IMG/VR virus record: IMGVR_UViG_3300045412_000547
DNA from: a virus
Direction: 5' to 3' (one strand)
DNA: 64,000 nucleotides
The notes below the pieces were generated by a model, which was given only the letters and a program-made list of their open reading frames with translations, was not told the DNA's origin and did not search any database. Positions 1 through 48,086 of the stretch are shown piece by piece. The translations under genes were made by a program, and so were the position numbers. Position 1 is the first letter of the stretch. Each line of letters starts with the position of its first letter.

Positions 1-339
1 TTGCAATTTCACAAGGATTAAACCAAACAAAAAGCCCTTGTTCATAACAATTTTGTACGTACAGGCTATTAACTGTTATAACCCAGTCTGTACGAAAGCT
101 AGTAACACGCTCTACTTTACAAGCTTTAATCTACAGTAGAACGATCGAGTTAAACTAACTCGAGTTCAGCTTCTGAATCAACGAAGCCAGCTGCAGCAAG
201 AATTGCATCAGCCTCTTCGAGACTCATGGCCATGTCGAAGTTGTCTTCGGCATTTAATATGATTTGCTATTGATAAACCGGCATGCCCCGGTACTTGCAC
301 TCATGAACTCCACTGTTCAATCGATTCCAATACAGGCCC
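1..339 (-). ncRNA. ssrA: tmRNA (3' tRNA-like end lies beyond the window start)
   Basis: Minus strand begins GGGCCTGTATTGGAATCGA, matching the tmRNA 5' pattern GGGGCTGxTTxGGATTCGAC. A resume context (ATTAAAT-GCC) opens a tag frame at 251->150: AEDNFDMAMSLEEADAILAAAGFVDSEAELELV*. Confidence 0.9.
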
Positions 340-353
340 AGTTAAGAAAGAAC

Positions 354-427
354 TCGCGGGGACAGGATTTGAACCTGCGACCTACTGGTTATGAGCCAGC
401 CGAGCTACCAGTCTGCTCCACCCCGCA
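354..427 (-). tRNA. tRNA-Met(CAT), initiator (fMet)-like; CCA not encoded
   Basis: TGCGGGGTGGAGCAGACTGGTAGCTCGGCTGG-CTCATAA-CCAGTAGGTCGCAGGTTCAAATCCTGTCCCCGCGA. Close to the bacterial fMet tRNA body, with weak 1:72 pair (U:G) and A11:U24. Confidence 0.9.
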
Positions 428-430
428 ATT

Positions 431-1024
431 TTATTTAAGCCAAATATAACCAGGATCTAGAGCCTGGGTATCTAAATAATCCCAAACTAGCCAGTTATTC
501 GTCTTCTTTATTGCCTCAACTACATTATAAATCAGAGCATTTAAATCATCTATATGCCAAACATCATCTAAAAGACGTTTACCTGAAGTTCTAGATTTAT
601 GAGCAATATGATCGGAATATGAATAAGCAAACCCTGTGAAAGGAGGTATCATACATCCCATTGAACAGAGTACTCCTTGCATACGAGATACCAATTCTTT
701 AGCGCCTACAGAATGCATTGTGACTATAACCCCTACTGGTTTTCCTAGCAAATGCTTTTTACCTTCAATTTGAGTCATTTTTTCAAATAAAGTCTGCATC
801 GGTGATCCCCATGAATCCCAATAGGTGCCAGAACAGAAAATAAGACCATCACTACTTCTAATAATTTTTCTAACTCGTACCCAGTCAAAGGAAGGCTGAA
901 GATGCACTATTTTAACTTTTATTTCAGAATCTTTTTTTAATGTAATCTTTCTAATCTTTTTAATTAAATGTCCGGTATTTCCGGATCTTCCTCCAAGGGA
1001 ACCATTAATGATCGTTATGATCAT
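431..1024 (-). CDS. NAD(P)H-dependent FMN reductase / flavodoxin-like protein
   Basis: IINGSLGGRSGNT, SDGLIFCSGTYW and LLGKPVGVI motifs of the flavodoxin-2/FMN_red fold. Confidence 0.8.
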   Translation of the reverse strand: MIITIINGSLGGRSGNTGHLIKKIRKITLKKDSEIKVKIVHLQPSFDWVRVRKIIRSSDGLIFCSGTYWDSWGSPMQTLFEKMTQIEGKKHLLGKPVGVIVTMHSVGAKELVSRMQGVLCSMGCMIPPFTGFAYSYSDHIAHKSRTSGKRLLDDVWHIDDLNALIYNVVEAIKKTNNWLVWDYLDTQALDPGYIWLK

Positions 1025-1058
1025 TTGAATATATTATAGAAAAATACTTAGTATTCAA
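1025..1058 (-). promoter_or_regulatory. sigma70-like early promoter (example of class TTGANW-N16-TAAWAT)
   Basis: TTGAAT(1058-1053)-N16-TAATAT(1036-1031)-N6-ATG. The same spacing recurs upstream of the genes starting at 3758, 4345, 12196, 13806, 14443, 14681, 19692 and 57174. Confidence 0.7.
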
Positions 1059-1067
1059 GGAAATTAT

Positions 1068-1073
1068 TAAATA
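1068..1073 (+). promoter_or_regulatory. T4-like late promoter core TAAATA (example of class TAARTA-N5-7-start)
   Basis: TAAATA-N5-GTG. The same geometry occurs before about 16 other starts, mostly structural genes, and resembles the T4 late promoter TATAAATA. Confidence 0.7.
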
Positions 1074-1078
1074 TAAAT

Positions 1079-3490
1079 GTGACCACAATACCAATTAATA
1101 TAGGCTTTTTGCCAAATACAATATTGCTTGGCTACAATTTTGATTATACCACGGGAATGTATTTAAGCTCTAATTTAAATTCAAATTTAGATGGGGTATC
1201 GGGTTTTGACTTTTATTCAGAGTATAAAAATTTATCTTCTAATAATCCTCCTTTTTCAGGTAAAAAAATTACCTATCAAATTATTAATGACAATACAATA
1301 AGTGTATCGCTCACATCCATCACAAACCCGGGTATTTACGATATTATTATTACCAATAATGGAGGGTATTTTAAGACATCAAATTTAAATACATTATTTC
1401 AACAAGAACCAAATGATATAAACGAATCACCAACACCTACGCCAACAGTAACTTGTACACCGACTAATACACCAACACAGACTCTTACAAATACAATTAC
1501 ACCTACGGTTACCCCTACAAATACAATAACGCCAACAGAAACGATTACTCAGACACCTACAGAGACACCGACAGTTACCCCGACAAATACAACAACACCA
1601 ACAGAGACACCCACACAGACACCGACAGTTACTCCTACAAATACAATAACACCAACAGAGACAATTACTCCAACAGAGACAATTACACAGACACCAACTG
1701 TAACGCCAACAGAAACGATTACTCAGACACCTACAGAGACACCGACAGTTACTCCGACAAATACAACAACACCAACAGAGACACCTACAGAGACACCGAC
1801 AGTTACCCCGACAAACACAATAACACCAACAGAGACACCCACACAGACACCGACAGTTACTCCAACAAATACAATAACGCCAACAGAAACGATTACTCAG
1901 ACACCTACAGAGACACCGACAGTTACTCCTACAAATACAATAACACCAACAGAGACACCTACAGAGACACCGACAGTTACTCCTACAAATACAATAACAC
2001 CAACAGAGACAATTACTCCAACAGAGACAATTACACAGACACCAACTGTAACGCCAACAGAAACTGTTACTCCTACTAATACCGTTTCACCTACTTCATC
2101 ATTAACTCCAGGCTCTACCCCTTCATCAACTCCAACTGTAACGCCAACAGAGACACCGACAGTTACTCCTACAAATACAATAACGCCAACAGAGACAATT
2201 ACTCCAACAGAGACAGTTACTCCGACAAATACAACAACACCATCTCAGACAATTACTCCGACAAATACAACAACACCATCTCAGACAATTACCCCAACAA
2301 AAACAGTTACCCCGACAAATACAACAACACCATCTCAGACAATTACTCCGACAAATACAACAACACCATCTCAGACAACTACCCCAACAAATACAACAAC
2401 ACCATCTCAGACAATTACTCCGACAAATACAACAACACCATCTCAGACAATTACACAGACACCAACTGTAACGCCAACAAAAACAGTTACCCCGACAAAT
2501 ACAACAACACCATCTCAGACAATTACTCCGACAAATACAACAACACCATCTCAGACAATTACTCCGACAAATACAACAACACCATCTCAGACAGTTACCC
2601 CGACAAGTACTTTAGGCGATGAAATATTATTGATTGCTACTCCTCCGGATAAAGTAATATTAATTAACCCTGCAGTTGCAGGTGATTATGTAGAGCAGAT
2701 TCACGGAGTAACATCTACCCCGACACAAACGGTTACACTTACACCAACTTCTACTCGAGCGGCTCCGTTTAACCCTGCTAGTATCGTCGGCCTAAAGTTG
2801 TGGCTGAAAGCCGATGCGGGCGTGACGGTAGATGCGAGCAACCGAGTGACTCAGTGGAGCGACCAAAGCGTGTCTGGCCTTAACTTTGTTCCAGATTTTC
2901 CAACTCTTGACATCACCAAAACCGCAAGCCACGCATCTTTTAACGGCAAACCTGTCATCACCTTTGTGACATCTAACAACGGCGGCGATGTCGGCCTGTT
3001 TGTGAACAGCCCCTTCACCAGCCGTTCTGTTTTTGTAGCCTATAAGCTAAACTCAGTTGAAAGTTTTGAGTATTCAGTCTTGTACGAAAACAGCGGCATA
3101 AACCTTTACGCCAGCTATGAATACAACAATCGTCTTTTTGGTGGATACTTTAATAACTTTTTTGATTCAAACACGCCTTCGGAGCTTGGTCAGGCTTATG
3201 TTCGGGCTTGTTTAAGCGACAGCATCTACGATGAAGAAACGGAATCATTCGATAATCCGATAAACTTTTTCCTTGGATTGACGGCAGATGGGTCGCACAA
3301 CGGCGCAGGATTTTTCGACCGACCGGCAATCGTCATTGGGAACGGAAATGCAAGATTGGCTTTGCCGGGCGGATTCTTGAACCAACCCTTTGAGGGGGAT
3401 TTGGCAGAAATCTTGGCCTATGATGAGGTGGTTTCAAGTGCGGATAGAATAGCCATCACAAATTATCTCAAAAATAAATACAATATATGA
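1079..3490 (+). CDS. Thr/Pro-rich (mucin-like) stalk protein with C-terminal LamG/ConA-like domain; probable virion appendage
   Basis: About 110-aa N-domain, about 400 aa of TPT(E/N/S)T repeats, then [11 protein letters not shown]...VTQWSDQS...[10 protein letters not shown]...YLKNKY, typical of LamG-like jelly-roll modules. Confidence 0.75.
1427..2606 (+). repeat. Degenerate coding tandem repeats (18-36 bp units) encoding [18 protein letters not shown]
   Basis: Repeated acaccaacagagac, actccgacaaatacaacaacaccatctcagacaatt and related units. Confidence 0.95.
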
Positions 3491-41984: not shown

Positions 41985-43253
41985 TTATACAGATCTGCCT
42001 ACTTGAAAGTACTTTCTTCCGGATAGCGTCAAAACAGGTGCTTTTGAAGTATATACCAAAATATTATTTTCGGATGATACTGTTGGCATCTTTAAATCCC
42101 AGGGCACTATATCTAAATCTCTTACAATACTTGTAATTCTACACCCTATAGAATATGAATCGTCTGGAGGGCCAGCAAAAAGCAAACCAATTGTTTTCCA
42201 TGCAGATGCAGAAGGTACATTCGAGCTTAGTAATGCAAACATCGCGGAACCCGAGTCACCGCCTCCACCGGGTGAAACATTACCCTGTACATAGAAACTG
42301 TCACTAAACCAGCTTCTATATCCACTATATAGTCCAACATTTGCATAGCCAAGTTGATATACAGATAATTTACAAAAATTACTAAACCCAGGAAAACCTA
42401 TAGGGCCTTTTGTTCTGCCTGATCTAAAAATAGGTGATCGGTAATTAAGAGATGTTGGATCTATTAGAGAATCAATTTCGTGATCTGATGCAAATTTATA
42501 AGGTGGCATCTCACTAAAATTTACCACCCTTCCACTGCTAAGAGGGTCTATTAAATTATAACTAGAAAGTTGTAAAATAGCTGCATCTACAGATGTGCCT
42601 TGGATATAACCATATGGGTCTAGAGAAGGAGAAATATTACCTATGAGTACTGGTCTCTTACATTTTCCTATATAATCAATACTTGAATCTGTATTTCCAT
42701 AACTATTACTGGAAGGTGAACCTGGTTGTCTACCACTTAATTCAAGCGTGTTAATTTTCCCTAAATTATTAGCTGTTGTAGAGCTCACTGCTGTAGATAC
42801 CTGAGATGCTGCATAAACATGGTTATTGCTTAAAGCTACAACCTGCCCGTCGGATTTATCTCTAACGATTAAACCAAGAGTAGCATCTGATGAGTTTATA
42901 TTTATACTACTTATGCCTCCCACAAGAGGTCTATATCTTATCCTATTACTTTTAACAGGTTCAACGTTTTCACTATTATTATGGCATGCAGTGGTTGCTA
43001 TTGTTTGGTGTAAAATTGTTTCCTGAACGTCCGTTAATACTATTTCTGTTTCAATTTCTAAATTCTGAGGAATAATCATATTTGAAGGTAATTGTGAAAG
43101 GGGTAACTTTTCTTTTACCAGTAAAATTAAACACATCTGTTCTGTAGATTGACCGTTTGTAATCTTAGGACCTACAAGAGCCCCTTGTACGTTATAGGGT
43201 AATTCTTTAAATTTACCTTCTCTGATCCATTGTAATGTTTTATATATATTCAT
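41985..43253 (-). CDS. Trypsin-like S1 serine protease, Nal1-like
   Basis: LSNNHV, VDAA and GGDSGS triad motifs; RPLVGGIS, ATLG, SGRT; Nal1-type N-domain (LVKEKLP...IP...TDVQE). Confidence 0.85.
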   Translation of the reverse strand: MNIYKTLQWIREGKFKELPYNVQGALVGPKITNGQSTEQMCLILLVKEKLPLSQLPSNMIIPQNLEIETEIVLTDVQETILHQTIATTACHNNSENVEPVKSNRIRYRPLVGGISSININSSDATLGLIVRDKSDGQVVALSNNHVYAASQVSTAVSSTTANNLGKINTLELSGRQPGSPSSNSYGNTDSSIDYIGKCKRPVLIGNISPSLDPYGYIQGTSVDAAILQLSSYNLIDPLSSGRVVNFSEMPPYKFASDHEIDSLIDPTSLNYRSPIFRSGRTKGPIGFPGFSNFCKLSVYQLGYANVGLYSGYRSWFSDSFYVQGNVSPGGGGDSGSAMFALLSSNVPSASAWKTIGLLFAGPPDDSYSIGCRITSIVRDLDIVPWDLKMPTVSSENNILVYTSKAPVLTLSGRKYFQVGRSV

Positions 43254-46200
43254 TAGTAATTTAATATATTTATTGTGCCTATCATATTGCTATGCACTGT
43301 GCACTGATAAAAAATAACATTAGGTGTACCGCTTGTAGGAGTGAATAATACTCTACCACTTGTTTTACCATTAACAATATCGTTATTATAAGTACCGTTT
43401 ACAGGATTTGTTGTATCACCACTTGCGTTTCTCAGAGCAAACGGATGACCTCCTAGATTAAGTATAAAATCATAATTTGTTCCACGGTAACAAGTAAGTG
43501 TGGGATTATTAGTTCCAAATTGTGAAATGTTATAGTATTGTCCAGGAGCAGAAACAGTTAAAGGCACAAAACTCGCAATATAAGTACTATTCACAATAGG
43601 TAATGTAACCGTTGGCGTGGGTGTGGGTGTAACCGGTAAACCAGATGCTGTGGGTGTAGGTGTAATATTGATGCAGGCCGAGCTGGTGGCCGAAGTGGGC
43701 TTACCTCCAAGAGTGCCTGTAAACCCAGAGCTAGTCGGGCAGTAGTAAATCGTCAGGTTAACGTGGGTGCCAGAGAAAACATTATTCCCCACCGTGGGAG
43801 CATTGCCCTGCATGGTGATGCTGGTAAGGCTGGTGCAGCCTTGGAACGCAGCATACCCAATGCTGGTCACGCTGTTGGGGATGGTGATGCTGGCAAGGCT
43901 GGTGCAACTAGCGAACACATAACCCCCAATGCTGGTCACACCGCTACCGATGGTGACGCTGGTAAGGCTGGAGCAATTTTCGAACGTCTGAGACCCAATG
44001 CTTCTCACGCCGCTACCGATGGTGACGCTGGCGAGGCCGGTGCAACTTTGGAACGCATAATCCCCAATGCTGGTCACGCTGTCGGGGATGATGATGCTGG
44101 TAAGGCCGGTACAATGAAAGAACGCAAAAATCCCAATGCTGGTCACGCTGGTGGGGATGGTGATGCTGGAAAAGCTGCAACCAGCGAACGCATTATTCCC
44201 AATGCTTCTCACGCCGCTACCGATGGTGACGCTGGCAAGGCTATTGCAACTAGAGAACGCATAATCCCCTATGCTGGTCACGCTGTCGGGGATGGTGATG
44301 CTGGCAAGGCTGCGGCAATTATAGAACGCATAAGTCCCAATGCTGGTCACGCTGTTGGGAATGGTGATGCTGGCAAGGCTGATGCAATTATAGAACACCC
44401 AACCCCCAATGCTAGTCACGCTGTCGGGGATGGTGACACTGGCAAGGCTGAAGCAACCAGAGAACGCTTCATTCCCAATGCTGGTCACATATAAACCAAT
44501 TTTTACAGCGGTTAAAGTTTTGTTGACGTTCCAGCTAGACTTGTACAACACCGTATCACTGCTGGTGCTGGTGGTTCCATCACTGTAATAAAAAATAGTC
44601 ACAGATGATGTACGGGTGGGGGTTAATGTTGGTGTGCTAGTAGGAGTTGGCGTGGGTGTGGGTGTAACCGGTAAACCAGATGCTGTGGGTGTAGGTGTAA
44701 TATTGATGCAGGCCGAGCTGGTGGCCGAAGTGGGCTTACCTCCAAGAGTGCCTGTAAACCCAGAGCTAGTCGGGCAGTAGTAAATCGTCAGGTTAACGTG
44801 GGTGTTATAGAAAACATTATTCCCCACCGTGGGAGCATTGCCCTGCATGGTGATGCTGGTAAGGCTGGAGCAGCCTTGGAACGCACCATACCCAATGCTG
44901 GTCACGCTGTTGGGGATGGTGATGCTGGCAAGGCTGGTGCAACTAACGAACGCATAACCCCCAATGCTGGTCACGCCGCTACCGATGGTGACGCTGGTAA
45001 GGCTGGAGCAACCAGTGAACGCACTATTCCCAATGCTGGTCACGCCGCTACCGATGGTGACGCTGGTAAGGCTGGTGCAATTATTGAACGCAATATCCCC
45101 AATGCTGGTCACGCTGTCGGGGATGGTGATGCTGGTAAGGCTGGAGCAATATTCGAACGCATGATGCCCAATGCTGGTCACGCTGTTGGGGATGGTGATG
45201 CTGGAAAGGCTGGTGCAATAAGAGAACGCCTCCGACCCAATGCTAGTCACGCTGTTGGGGATGGTGATGCTGACAAGGCTGAAGCAACCAGAGAACGCTT
45301 CATTCCCAATGCTGGTCACATATAAACCAATTTTTACAGCGGTTAAAGTTTTGTTGACGTTCCAGCTAGACTTGTACAACACCGTATCACTGCTGGTGCT
45401 GGTGGTTCCATCACTGTAATAGAAAATAGTCACAGATGATGTACGGGTTGGTGTAGGTGTTATTGTAGGTGTAGGTGTTATGGTGGGTGTAGGTGTAATA
45501 TTGATGCAGGCTGAGTCGTCGGGCACGGTGGGCTTACCTCCAAGAGTGTCTGTAAACCCAGAGCTAGTCGGGCAGTAGTAAATCGTCAGGTTAACGTGGG
45601 TGCTTGAGAAAGCGCCATCCCCCACCGTGGGGGCATTCCCCTGCATGGTGATGCTAGTAAGGCTAGTGCAATTAAAGAACGCATAATCCCCAATGCTGGT
45701 CACGCTGTTGGGGATGGTGACGCTGGCAAGGCTGGTGCAATTAAAGAACGCAAAATTCCCAATGCTGGTCACGCTGTCGGGGATGGTGACGCTGGCAAGG
45801 CTGGTGCAACCATAGAACGCACTATACCCAATGCTGGTCACGCTGTTGGGGATGGTGATGCTGGTAAGGCTGGAGCAATTTCTGAACGCACCATACCCAA
45901 GGCTGGTCACATATAAACCAATTTCTACAGCGGTTAAAGTTTTGTTGATGTTCCTGCTGGAATCTAACAACACCGTATCACTGCTGGTGCTGGTGGTTCC
46001 ATCACTGTAATAGAAAATAGTCACAGATGATGTACGGGTGGGGGTTAATGTTGGTGTGCTAGTAGGAGTTGGCGTGGGTGTTGGTGTAGCAGGATTGCCC
46101 GATAATGTTGGCGTGGGTGTAGTAGGATTGCCCGATAATGTTGGCGTGGGTGTAGTAGGATTGCCCGATAATGTAACCGAAGGAGTTGGTGTGGGTGTAG

Positions 46201-46492
46201 TAGGATTGCCCGATAATGTAACCGAAGGAGTTGGTGTGGGTGAGGGCAATGGGTTATTTAGCGTTATATTATTTTTAGCCACAACTATATATCCTGAATT
46301 ACTAATAAAATGGGTAAATTGCGGGGCAATATCGAATGGTCTGTAGGTTCTTAGGACGTATTGAGATGGGGCTACTATTTGTACCGCACATAAAGAAGCG
46401 CTAATCGAGCTTAATGCTATAGGTACTTCAAAAGGATATTGAAATACGGAGTATTTACCAAAAGAATCGCCAGGCAAAATAATCTGATTCAT
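43253..46492 (-). CDS. BspA-type (LRR_5) triple-module protein on PT stalks with C-terminal cupredoxin-like domain
   Basis: 21 LTSITIPNSVTSIGxxAFxxC repeats in three capped modules; C-terminal NPTLT..RG..Y.F...GHPF...YQCTVHSNMIG. Confidence 0.9.
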   Translation of the reverse strand: MNQIILPGDSFGKYSVFQYPFEVPIALSSISASLCAVQIVAPSQYVLRTYRPFDIAPQFTHFISNSGYIVVAKNNITLNNPLPSPTPTPSVTLSGNPTTPTPTPSVTLSGNPTTPTPTLSGNPTTPTPTLSGNPATPTPTPTPTSTPTLTPTRTSSVTIFYYSDGTTSTSSDTVLLDSSRNINKTLTAVEIGLYVTSLGYGAFRNCSSLTSITIPNSVTSIGYSAFYGCTSLASVTIPDSVTSIGNFAFFNCTSLASVTIPNSVTSIGDYAFFNCTSLTSITMQGNAPTVGDGAFSSTHVNLTIYYCPTSSGFTDTLGGKPTVPDDSACINITPTPTITPTPTITPTPTRTSSVTIFYYSDGTTSTSSDTVLYKSSWNVNKTLTAVKIGLYVTSIGNEAFSGCFSLVSITIPNSVTSIGSEAFSYCTSLSSITIPNSVTSIGHHAFEYCSSLTSITIPDSVTSIGDIAFNNCTSLTSVTIGSGVTSIGNSAFTGCSSLTSVTIGSGVTSIGGYAFVSCTSLASITIPNSVTSIGYGAFQGCSSLTSITMQGNAPTVGNNVFYNTHVNLTIYYCPTSSGFTGTLGGKPTSATSSACINITPTPTASGLPVTPTPTPTPTSTPTLTPTRTSSVTIFYYSDGTTSTSSDTVLYKSSWNVNKTLTAVKIGLYVTSIGNEAFSGCFSLASVTIPDSVTSIGGWVFYNCISLASITIPNSVTSIGTYAFYNCRSLASITIPDSVTSIGDYAFSSCNSLASVTIGSGVRSIGNNAFAGCSFSSITIPTSVTSIGIFAFFHCTGLTSIIIPDSVTSIGDYAFQSCTGLASVTIGSGVRSIGSQTFENCSSLTSVTIGSGVTSIGGYVFASCTSLASITIPNSVTSIGYAAFQGCTSLTSITMQGNAPTVGNNVFSGTHVNLTIYYCPTSSGFTGTLGGKPTSATSSACINITPTPTASGLPVTPTPTPTVTLPIVNSTYIASFVPLTVSAPGQYYNISQFGTNNPTLTCYRGTNYDFILNLGGHPFALRNASGDTTNPVNGTYNNDIVNGKTSGRVLFTPTSGTPNVIFYQCTVHSNMIGTINILNY
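43600..46080 (-). repeat. Three near-identical module duplications, each containing 69-bp LRR tandem repeats (4, 7 and 10 units)
   Basis: Caps such as caccgtatcactgctggtgctggtggttccatcactgtaat and aaacccagagctagtcgggcagtagtaaatcgtcaggttaacgtgggtg each occur three times. Confidence 0.95.
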
Positions 46493-46511
46493 ATGTTATT
46501 ATTTATTTTTT

Positions 46512-48086
46512 TTAAGATAAATTTACAACTCCATTTACAAAAATACCTGTAAATTGATAATTATTTCCTGGAGTACTATTTAATTTATATCCAAAAGATG
46601 TACCTAATCTATCTGTTGTAAAATTAATAAAACTTCTAAAACTACCGCTTAAATTTACAGTCATAGTAACAAAATCAATCGAACTACCACCATTATTAAA
46701 ATAAACAGTATCAGCATAGTTGTAGGGTGAAACGGAATTAATTTCTATCTTTTGACCCGGGCTAACATTTTCTGGACCTACTAAAGAAAATAGAAAGTTA
46801 GTACTAGAAGTTAATGACGGTGTCACACTGGGCGTTGCTGTTGTTGTAGGAGTAACCGGTAAACCAGATGCTGTGGGTGTAGTGCCCGGAATTCTTGTAG
46901 GTGTAAGCGTTTGGGTAGGGGTAGGGGTAGGTGTTGGTGTTGTTGTAGGAGTAACCGGTAAACCAGATGCTGTGGGTGTTGGTGTAGCAGGATTGCCCGA
47001 TAATGTAACCGAAGGAGTTGGCGTGGGTGTAGCAGGATTGCCCGATAATGTAACCGAAGGAGTTGGCGTGGGTGTAGCAGGATTGCCCGATAATGTTGGC
47101 GTGGTGGGAGGGGTAGGAGTAGGGGTAGTCGGTAAACTAGATGCTGTTGATGTCGCTGTAGGTGTAATGCCCGGAATTCTTGTAGGTGTAAGTGTCTGAG
47201 TAGGTGTTTGTGTAGGGGTGGGTGTTGCTCCGGTATTAAAATATACGTTTCCTGCTATAAATGTACTGAAAAATTGTGGGTATGATTTATTAAACCCTTG
47301 TAGGCTATAACCAAACGGCTGACTAATTCTTGTTGATTCAAAGTCAACCTGAATTCTAGCTCTACCATCTACCCATATACGCATGGGGGGAATAGCAGGC
47401 AACCCTCCAGTGCTTACCCCATTAAAACAAAAACTATCTAAATAGTTTTCAGCTGAAAATAAAGAAATATCTTCAACAGTATTATTACCTTCAACACAAT
47501 ATGAAAATGGGTTCGGTGTTGTCGAAGGAGTAATTGAAGGAGTAATTGATGGAGTGCTTGTTTGAGATGAGGTTGGAGTATTGGTAGGTGAAGGAGTTAG
47601 TGTAGAAGTAGCGATAGGAGTAGGTGAATTTGAAGGTGTAGGTGTTTGTGTTGGTGTTTCTGATCGTGTTTCTGATGGTGTTTCTGATGGTGTGACTCCT
47701 ATAGTTAGTGTAGGGGTGCAGGTATTCGTGATTGTAGGTGTATTTGTAGGAGTTTCTGTTTGTGTTGGCGTTGCTGTTAAAGTATTGGAAGGCGTAGGTG
47801 ATTTGGTAACTGAAGGTGTAGGTGATTTGGTAACTGAAGGTGTAGGTGTATTTGTAGCTGTTTGAGAAGGCGTTACTGATGCGGTTGGTGTGTTCGAGGG
47901 AGTTATAGAAGGAGTAGGTGAATTCGTTGGGGTTGATGTTACAGGTATACCTAGATCCGCAGCGATGCCCACAAATCCTTCTTGCATAATTTTTTCAAAA
48001 CTCGTGCGACTTAATCGCTCTCTACGTAGACGATCGTTTGTACTTAAGTTGTCTAAAACCCGCGGATCTTTTTTACGCACAGCCAT
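46512..48086 (-). CDS. Thr/Pro-rich stalk protein with two copies of an about 90-aa beta domain
   Basis: Basic N-terminus, then PT tract, domain 1 (..NYLDSFCFNG..QPFGY..), PT tract, domain 2 (..NYADTVYFNNG..TSFGY..). Confidence 0.7.
   Translation of the reverse strand: MAVRKKDPRVLDNLSTNDRLRRERLSRTSFEKIMQEGFVGIAADLGIPVTSTPTNSPTPSITPSNTPTASVTPSQTATNTPTPSVTKSPTPSVTKSPTPSNTLTATPTQTETPTNTPTITNTCTPTLTIGVTPSETPSETRSETPTQTPTPSNSPTPIATSTLTPSPTNTPTSSQTSTPSITPSITPSTTPNPFSYCVEGNNTVEDISLFSAENYLDSFCFNGVSTGGLPAIPPMRIWVDGRARIQVDFESTRISQPFGYSLQGFNKSYPQFFSTFIAGNVYFNTGATPTPTQTPTQTLTPTRIPGITPTATSTASSLPTTPTPTPPTTPTLSGNPATPTPTPSVTLSGNPATPTPTPSVTLSGNPATPTPTASGLPVTPTTTPTPTPTPTQTLTPTRIPGTTPTASGLPVTPTTTATPSVTPSLTSSTNFLFSLVGPENVSPGQKIEINSVSPYNYADTVYFNNGGSSIDFVTMTVNLSGSFRSFINFTTDRLGTSFGYKLNSTPGNNYQFTGIFVNGVVNLS

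Follow-up and report, generated by a model that had tools for sequence, protein, structure and literature searches.

A predicted tmRNA with a long, acidic, ELV-ended tag in an uncultured T4-like lake phage

The stretch of DNA analysed here (the window) is a 64,000-nucleotide sequence from IMG/VR virus record IMGVR_UViG_3300045412_000547. Its source is an uncultured T4-like lake phage with a G+C content of about 30%, and the phage genes within it include those for a baseplate wedge protein (phrog_219), a clamp loader (phrog_168) and a tail-fibre chaperone domain. At the start of the window, three genes lie on the minus strand:

1..339, minus: tmRNA gene, present as the 5' 339 nt of ~407, the remaining 3' ~68 nt lying beyond base 1
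354..427, minus: tRNA-Met(CAT), initiator-like (RF00005, 59.5 bits)
431..1024, minus: FMN-reductase-like gene (PF03358, E 2.5e-9), directly upstream of the tRNA-Met

Reading along the minus strand, the FMN-reductase-like gene (1024..431) is followed by the tRNA-Met(CAT) gene (427..354) and, after a gap of 14 nt, by the tmRNA, which begins with GGGCCUG from position 339. A tRNA-Met gene also stands beside the tmRNA in the related loci L011, L017 and L304 and in 8 of 24 loci, and is its sole recurrent neighbour; the two RNAs are probably made as one transcript that would be split by RNase P. A scan of window positions 1-1300 for sigma-70 promoters and terminators did no better than shuffled sequences. 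The tRNA-Met has initiator-like features when read from the RF00005 alignment (acceptor positions 2-7 GCGGGG, an A11:U24 pair and A73). Compared with E. coli tRNAfMet, however, U1.G72 replaces the C1xA72 mismatch and only two of the three anticodon-stem G:C pairs are present.

The surroundings of the locus vary among relatives. Long tRNA genes of 91-101 nt stand just upstream of the FMN-reductase-like gene in some of them (L001:3431-3523, L007:5862-5954, L008:400-492 and L009:5827-5927), those of L001, L007 and L008 being tRNA-Ile with anticodon TAT according to ARAGORN; these genes may contain introns. In the window, by contrast, the tRNA-Met and the tmRNA stand downstream of the FMN-reductase-like gene. 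A related phage contig of 158 kb has a group I intron (RF00028, 70.9 bits; L004:10100-10336, minus strand) within a few kb of its tmRNA, at a position that corresponds to L017:7675-7911 (minus strand). Far from the tmRNA, at window positions 44000-48000, G+C rises to as much as 46%, compared with about 30% elsewhere, over a BspA-type leucine-rich-repeat gene (43253-46492), which fits an imported module.

Run on the window, ARAGORN and Rfam (at the gathering threshold) report four tRNAs and no tmRNA, and RF00023 gives the truncated copy a local match of 6.5 bits only. The finders miss the tmRNA because the gene runs off base 1: alignment to relatives shows that the absent ~68 nt comprise the P2 3' strands, the T-arm and the acceptor 3' strand. 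The contig itself may end at base 1, and exact 25-mer scans of viral, genome and metagenome collections returned no match to the window's own contig or to the missing 3' end. A weak match to a permuted tmRNA in the window (16.3 bits) was rejected, as it borrows the T-arm of the neighbouring tRNA-Met.

Relatives were fetched from IMG/VR and JGI metagenomes using as handles the FMN-reductase-like gene, 70-73% identical copies of which occur in ten IMG/VR loci, and then the tag itself. Full-length copies were obtained from viral and metagenome contigs; within the part they share with the window their identity to it is ~90%, and they score 84.6-106.9 bits on RF00023, for which the gathering score is 47 bits (for example L002, 86.3; L003, 87.8; L306, 86.8; L304, 85.8 bits). 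The preliminary description of this DNA, which was made from its letters, had called the locus a phage tmRNA, and the scores of the relatives, a covarying fold and the phage genes of the window all bear this out. The ARAGORN and RF00023 run that it proposed fails on the window alone and succeeds on full-length relatives, whilst the tRNA-Ala-like 3' end that it expected next to base 1 is found in every orthologue, the window's own copy lying beyond base 1. Judged by these comparisons, window positions 1-339 (minus strand) appear to be the larger part of a functional one-piece phage tmRNA, with the following elements in 5' to 3' order of the RNA:

333..339, minus: acceptor-stem 5' strand GGGCCUG, with G1 at 339, followed by the D-loop-like UGGAAUCGA
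294..320, minus: 5' strands of the long helix P2, whose partners are outside the window; helices 2-4 have 94.7-99% of cells paired and 11 compensatory pairs
278..291, minus: PK1 hairpin stem CCGG ... CCGG; 100% paired, two of its pairs having switched from CG to UA on both strands
249..251, minus: resume codon GCC (Ala), after UUAAAU; high-posterior alignment to the RF00023 resume region in relatives
153..251, minus: tag frame of 33 codons, by translation, with its stop UAA at 150-152
145..163, minus: helix 5, a 6-bp hairpin whose loop contains the codon for Val together with bases 1 and 2 of the stop; 96% paired, three compensatory pairs
95..143, minus: PK2, two stems; 100% paired, compensatory change in 11 of 14 pairs
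44..92, minus: PK3, two stems; stem 2 94.7% paired, stem 1 blurred by an indel between two subgroups
1..40, minus: PK4, cut at the window edge; helices 78% and 100% paired

A fold model covering the acceptor, P2, the PK1 stem, helix 5, PK2 and the T-arm was written on 26 distinct sequences. In this model 98% of 1449 cells are paired and compensatory change is seen in 32 of 57 pairs, compared with 7-10 in slid controls. PK3 and PK4 together are 83% paired, with compensatory change in 18 of their 28 pairs, and PK3 stem 1 has compensated changes in the window itself (UACAG/CUGUA). Helix 5 occurs in the compensatory variants CGAGU/ACUCG, CGAAC/GUUCG and CGAGC/GCUCG. Substitution patterns of this kind argue that the tmRNA fold is maintained by compensatory changes.

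The acceptor stem also covaries, and the G3:U70 pair is present in all 25 complete members. At acceptor position 4, however, the window has C where 25 other members have G. A metagenome scan for the C4 variant returned L304, L306 and L312, which have the same 5' strand as the window and a 3' strand reading CAGGUCC-A; because relatives with this 5' strand carry CAGGUCC-A, the C4 change is evidently compensated (C4:G69) with G3:U70 kept. A first run with an nhmmer profile had suggested a Flavobacteriaceae origin for the RNA, an idea dropped after a Proteobacteria control (median 15.3 vs 14.7 bits). As the control scored alike and only the universal 3' domain matches, the RNA sequence points to no phylum.

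The tag encoded at 251..153 (minus strand) reads AEDNFD, then MAMSLEEADAIL, then AAAG and finally FVDSEAELELV, with its stop at 152..150. It has 33 residues, ten of them acidic and none basic, giving a net charge of -10, and the preliminary description was accurate both in this reading and in presenting the tag as roughly three times the usual length, acidic and lacking an Ala-Ala end, the last residues being ELV. The resume codon is likewise the one first proposed, GCC being found in 27 of 27 distinct sequences and aligned to the RF00023 resume region. ARAGORN, run on relatives L022, L029 and L035, returns the identical 33-residue tag with the identical resume codon. Frame, length and stop position are constant in the 32 relatives examined, except for one with a single extra residue, and the stop alternates between TAA and TAG with its place fixed.

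Several properties of the 27 distinct sequences suggest that the tag is translated and evolves as protein-coding sequence under peptide-level selection. Variable columns at codon positions 1, 2 and 3 number 11, 8 and 22, respectively, and pN/pS is 0.24 in the tag frame compared with 1.13 and 2.23 in the other frames. Twenty of the 33 residues are invariant, among them the hydrophobic residues F5, M7, M9, L11, I17, L18, F23, L30, L32 and V33. Some of the conservation may act at the level of the RNA: the codons TTC, GAC, AGT, GCA and CTT are used without any synonym in 27 of 27 sequences. That the last codons and the stop sit in the covarying helix 5 hairpin implies that the extension is built into the RNA and is no accident of read-through, and since the last four codons fall in helix 5, the ELV end may be partly an RNA constraint.

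AlphaFold predicts one helix in the tag, at residues 11-20, with a pLDDT of 69 (medium confidence) and no fold, and Pfam and ESM Atlas searches with the tag returned nothing. A folded domain or mimic was considered and set aside on these results, and no tool backed a likeness to UBA-type helix-MGF-helix motifs.

A search of IMG/VR with the core of the tag gave 96 loci, 80 of which were kept, with 53 distinct tags. These define a family whose core, MA[PM]S[LV].EAD[AE]IL-A-xx-G[FWY], is a nearly fixed acidic helix, carried by the window tag as MAMSLEEADAIL-A-AA-G-F. Family tags are ~30-35 residues long and share a layout: an ordinary start of the A-N-x-N type, the core helix, a few acidic residues and the end. 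It is the end that varies. The last three residues are ELV in 24 of the 80 loci, VAA in 21, LAA in eight, MAA in six and LVA in six; others include AVLV and, in one sister variant, LVE. A terminal Ala-Ala is thus present in 35 of the 80 wider-family loci, whereas the 24 loci of the ELV branch all end in ELV, with neither Ala-Ala nor any comparable pair of small hydrophobic residues. The wider viral family and the ELV branch have in common the core, the length class, the tmRNA architecture and, in our searches, an occurrence on viral contigs only; they differ in that most of the wider family ends in VAA, LAA, MAA or LVA, whilst LELV is the end of the ELV branch (24 of 80), a lineage of its own.

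The family also bears on the suggestion in the preliminary description that ILAAA, within the tag, is the usual degron buried by an extension. This does not hold. The last two Ala of ILAAA, residues 20-21, are the most variable of the tag (QH, QY, TA, ST, TT, VA or AA), the wider family has ILA-KH-G, ILA-QF-G or ILA-RF-G at this point, and ordinary ends are kept beyond it. By this comparison, residues 20-21 look like a turn after the conserved helix and not like a former C-terminus. A long tag is, moreover, compatible with a normal degron, because length runs through the whole family, members with ordinary ends included.

When 29 distinct RNAs are placed in an unrooted maximum-likelihood tree, a branch with 100/100 support and a length of 0.91 sets the ELV group apart from the rest. 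The ELV branch would accordingly appear, from the tree and the alignment, to be one well-supported lineage in which only the tag end has changed, and since the tags of bacteria and of the sister lineage have Ala at the end, ELV is presumably the derived state. Searched with a profile, 1.84 billion protein representatives gave 24 matches, nearly all of them short ORF calls over tmRNA tags, with the same pattern of ends. One match, an 862-aa protein (P0004) with nine exact repeats containing AAISLEETDALLTTGG, is due to repetition only and was treated as unrelated.

In the bacterial genomes sampled, the tag was not encountered above chance level. The core profile was positive in five of five related phage records (E 1e-14 to 1e-15) and in none of 401 Bacteroidota genomes; among 401 Pseudomonadota genomes a single match (E 0.006, with an internal stop) was at chance level. 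The narrow tag was absent from 185,579 species genomes, and megablast, blastn and tblastn searches of 50,697 phage records gave neither the narrow tag nor a cultured or deposited relative. A broad scan of genome contigs with a degenerate form of the core gave nothing tmRNA-like among the 120 matches listed, which is no measure of absence. In the collections searched, which are samples, the family is found only on viral contigs. Our literature search found no paper on the long-tag family (core MA[PM]S..EAD.IL).

A different tmRNA was seen in passing, at L303:406-791, L309:2049-2434 (minus strand) and on L310. It scores 103 bits, likewise has the acceptor pair GGGCCUG/CAGGUCC, and its CCA is encoded. 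Its tag has ~20 residues and ends in EMDLDLAVA, the C-terminal half resembling that of the ELV tag (F.D.E.[DE]L[DE]L). The gene adjoins clusters of tRNA genes, and as the genes of these contigs resemble nothing known, it is probably another phage tmRNA; a search of IMG/VR for a sister tag ending in DLDLAVA found none.

As regards the host, only three of 52 genes have Shine-Dalgarno motifs, against a background of 4%, a shortage that fits a Bacteroidota host without being proof of one. Candidate host phyla carry short LAA tags, namely GENNYALAA in Bacteroidota (at least 120 species) and AND[DE]x[FY]ALAA in Proteobacteria (at least 120), which is how the comparison with host-lineage tags proposed at the outset turned out. 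Neither SmpB nor a ClpP, Lon (Lon_C) or S41 protease (Peptidase_S41) turned up in five related contigs, a set that includes two rated 100% complete. No conserved protein gene flanks the tmRNA in these phages: its neighbours change between them, with a sugar epimerase at some loci and genes without known relatives at others. Neither the phage protease search nor the comparison of neighbours yielded a reader for the tag.

Compared with canonical one-piece SsrA (RF00023; tags such as GENNYALAA and ANDENYALAA), the phage RNA is alike in its G3:U70 acceptor, T-arm, P2 and PK1-PK4, in having an Ala resume codon after a U/A-rich leader and a stop in the helix-5 loop, and in the first five residues of its tag. 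It differs in that the tag has 33 residues instead of 9-10, with an acidic helix inserted and an ELV end, and in that the gene is in a phage, beside a tRNA and with no SmpB gene; CCA is not encoded.

The clearest precedent for a long tag with a different reader is cellular. Gur and Sauer are said to have described, in 2008, an extended Mycoplasma or Mesoplasma ssrA tag that is read by Lon. The Mycoplasma tag has 27 residues and is read by Lon along its length (PMC8403727). Like the phage tag, it is about three times the usual length, and an internal part of it is read by the protease; on the other hand, it belongs to a cellular tmRNA of a lineage that has lost ClpXP, is not acidic and ends in AFA. 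The likeness is one of length and logic only, and nothing links the phage tag to Lon.

Among phages, tmRNA has been found in 402 of 18,146 genomes (about 2.3%), and marine T4-like phages (Melnitz, HTVC008M and cyanophages) carry two-piece tmRNAs (PMC9004378). These phages resemble ours in being T4-like and in infecting streamlined aquatic bacteria, but their tmRNAs are circularly permuted and host-like, whereas that described here is in one piece with a family-specific tag. Published lists of phage tmRNAs include those of mycobacteriophage Bxz1 and other cluster C1 phages (PMC4131195). The Bxz1 tmRNA is also phage-encoded, one-piece and located among tRNA genes, and its tag of 25 residues is also acidic (net -7), free of basic residues and ended by LV; it differs in having no sequence relation to ours (no nhmmer match), an actinobacterial host and another tag core. 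Other tags of deposited phages are short and host-like, the long acidic exceptions being those of Bxz1 and of Cellulophaga phage phi38:1 (KC821614; L057:1503-1862, minus strand). The latter, a cultured phage with a Bacteroidota host, has a 22-residue tag containing EAVNAIL, near the EADAIL of the core; its tmRNA may be distantly related to the long-tag family, and the phage could offer a way into experiments.

In trans-translation, tmRNA is charged with Ala via G3:U70 and delivered by SmpB and EF-Tu, after which translation resumes on the tmRNA and the tag is added. In the phage, the RNA would be made together with the upstream tRNA-Met and charged by host AlaRS via G3:U70. Host SmpB and EF-Tu would then bring it to stalled ribosomes, the SmpB presumably being that of the host because the phage has none. 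Resuming at GCC, the ribosome would append the 33-residue tag, which would most probably serve as a three-part address: an ordinary start (A-E-D-N-F, like ANDENY or GENNY), a conserved helix and a short hydrophobic C-terminus. The helix would dock a candidate reader, such as an adaptor or the N-domain of a protease, of host or phage origin, and the C-terminus would engage an unfoldase. In the ELV branch, the Ala-rich end (AAVAA or ALAA) would have been replaced by ELELV, a change that probably weakens or redirects recognition by the protease, rather than abolishing it.

The E. coli tag is itself bipartite, SspB acting on the front and ClpX on the LAA. For the phage tag we favour an address with two readers, because hydrophobic residues are invariant in an otherwise acidic peptide and because the wider family keeps an ordinary end. 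On balance, we lean towards the view that the helix is a docking site for a putative reader and ELELV an altered protease signal. More tentatively, and as a possibility that we would rate below an even chance, the acidic helix might dock a dedicated reader other than the ClpX pore that sets the fate of unfinished proteins; the ELV branch would then have left the host ClpXP route, its products going to Lon, FtsH, a chaperone or a phage factor, or being shielded.

The ELV end could also mean, as the preliminary description had mainly proposed, that ribosomes are rescued without degradation, ELV being no degron at all, so that tagged products are released and persist and the acidic tail does no more than solubilise them. 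The ELV branch does lack the Ala-Ala of 35 of the 80 wider-family loci and of the candidate host phyla, its antepenultimate residue is Glu, the tag has a net charge of -10 and a sister variant ends in LVE. A mere solubility tail, however, needs no 20 invariant residues, many of them hydrophobic, the last two residues are hydrophobic in all members, and persisting truncated structural proteins would presumably be costly to the phage. We therefore regard rescue without degradation as unlikely.

Conversely, ELV might be an ordinary, host-specific ClpXP or ClpAP degron, if the host ClpX takes LV-COOH as it does LAA and the helix is a site for an SspB-like adaptor. A terminal Val does not exclude ClpXP, since tags ending in AAV and ASV are still ClpXP-dependent substrates in enterobacteria (PMC11003136); moreover, other phage tags end in AVA, QVA, MVA, ALV or VGV, and the wider family includes AVLV and LVA ends. 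Yet these precedents do not include Glu at -3, and the fixed ELV end on a long branch (0.91) suggests a specificity that has changed, not one that is drifting, so that an ordinary degron, too, seems improbable to us.

Two further explanations can be given hardly any weight. A decoy, soaking up host SmpB or obstructing trans-translation in the host, would suit phages without an SmpB of their own and has a precedent in the TLD-only RNA of mycobacteriophage DS6A (PMC4131195), but a decoy needs neither the mRNA-like domain and full set of pseudoknots nor the full, peptide-selected tag frame that are kept under selection here. A separately initiated micropeptide of 25-27 residues, begun at the in-frame Met7 or Met9 without trans-translation, would explain the invariant ATG GCC ATG, and such ORFs are often called by gene callers (P0003, P0006, P0010) in a phage whose genes are without Shine-Dalgarno sites anyway; against this, codons 1-6 change synonymously (GAC/GAT, GAA/GAG) and keep a typical tag start, and the frame lies exactly at the RF00023 and ARAGORN tag position.

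Phage tmRNAs are already known and listed in databases, whilst the function of their tags has been little studied, and our literature search found no paper discussing it. Members of the long-tag family are also easily overlooked: ARAGORN detected only four of 24 full-length members (L019-L047), reporting a wrong short tag in one of the four, and missed the other 20, whereas Rfam detected every family member tested. As ARAGORN is the usual annotation tool, long-tag tmRNAs are probably under-annotated in phage genomes. The family tag amounts to ~20 extra residues under clear peptide-level selection, and because these residues are selected and occur on viral contigs only, it appears that the phages write their own label on stalled products, beyond topping up host rescue. 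A possible yield is an orthogonal tag for degradation or capture, and the reader, if found, would show a virus rewiring bacterial protein quality control.
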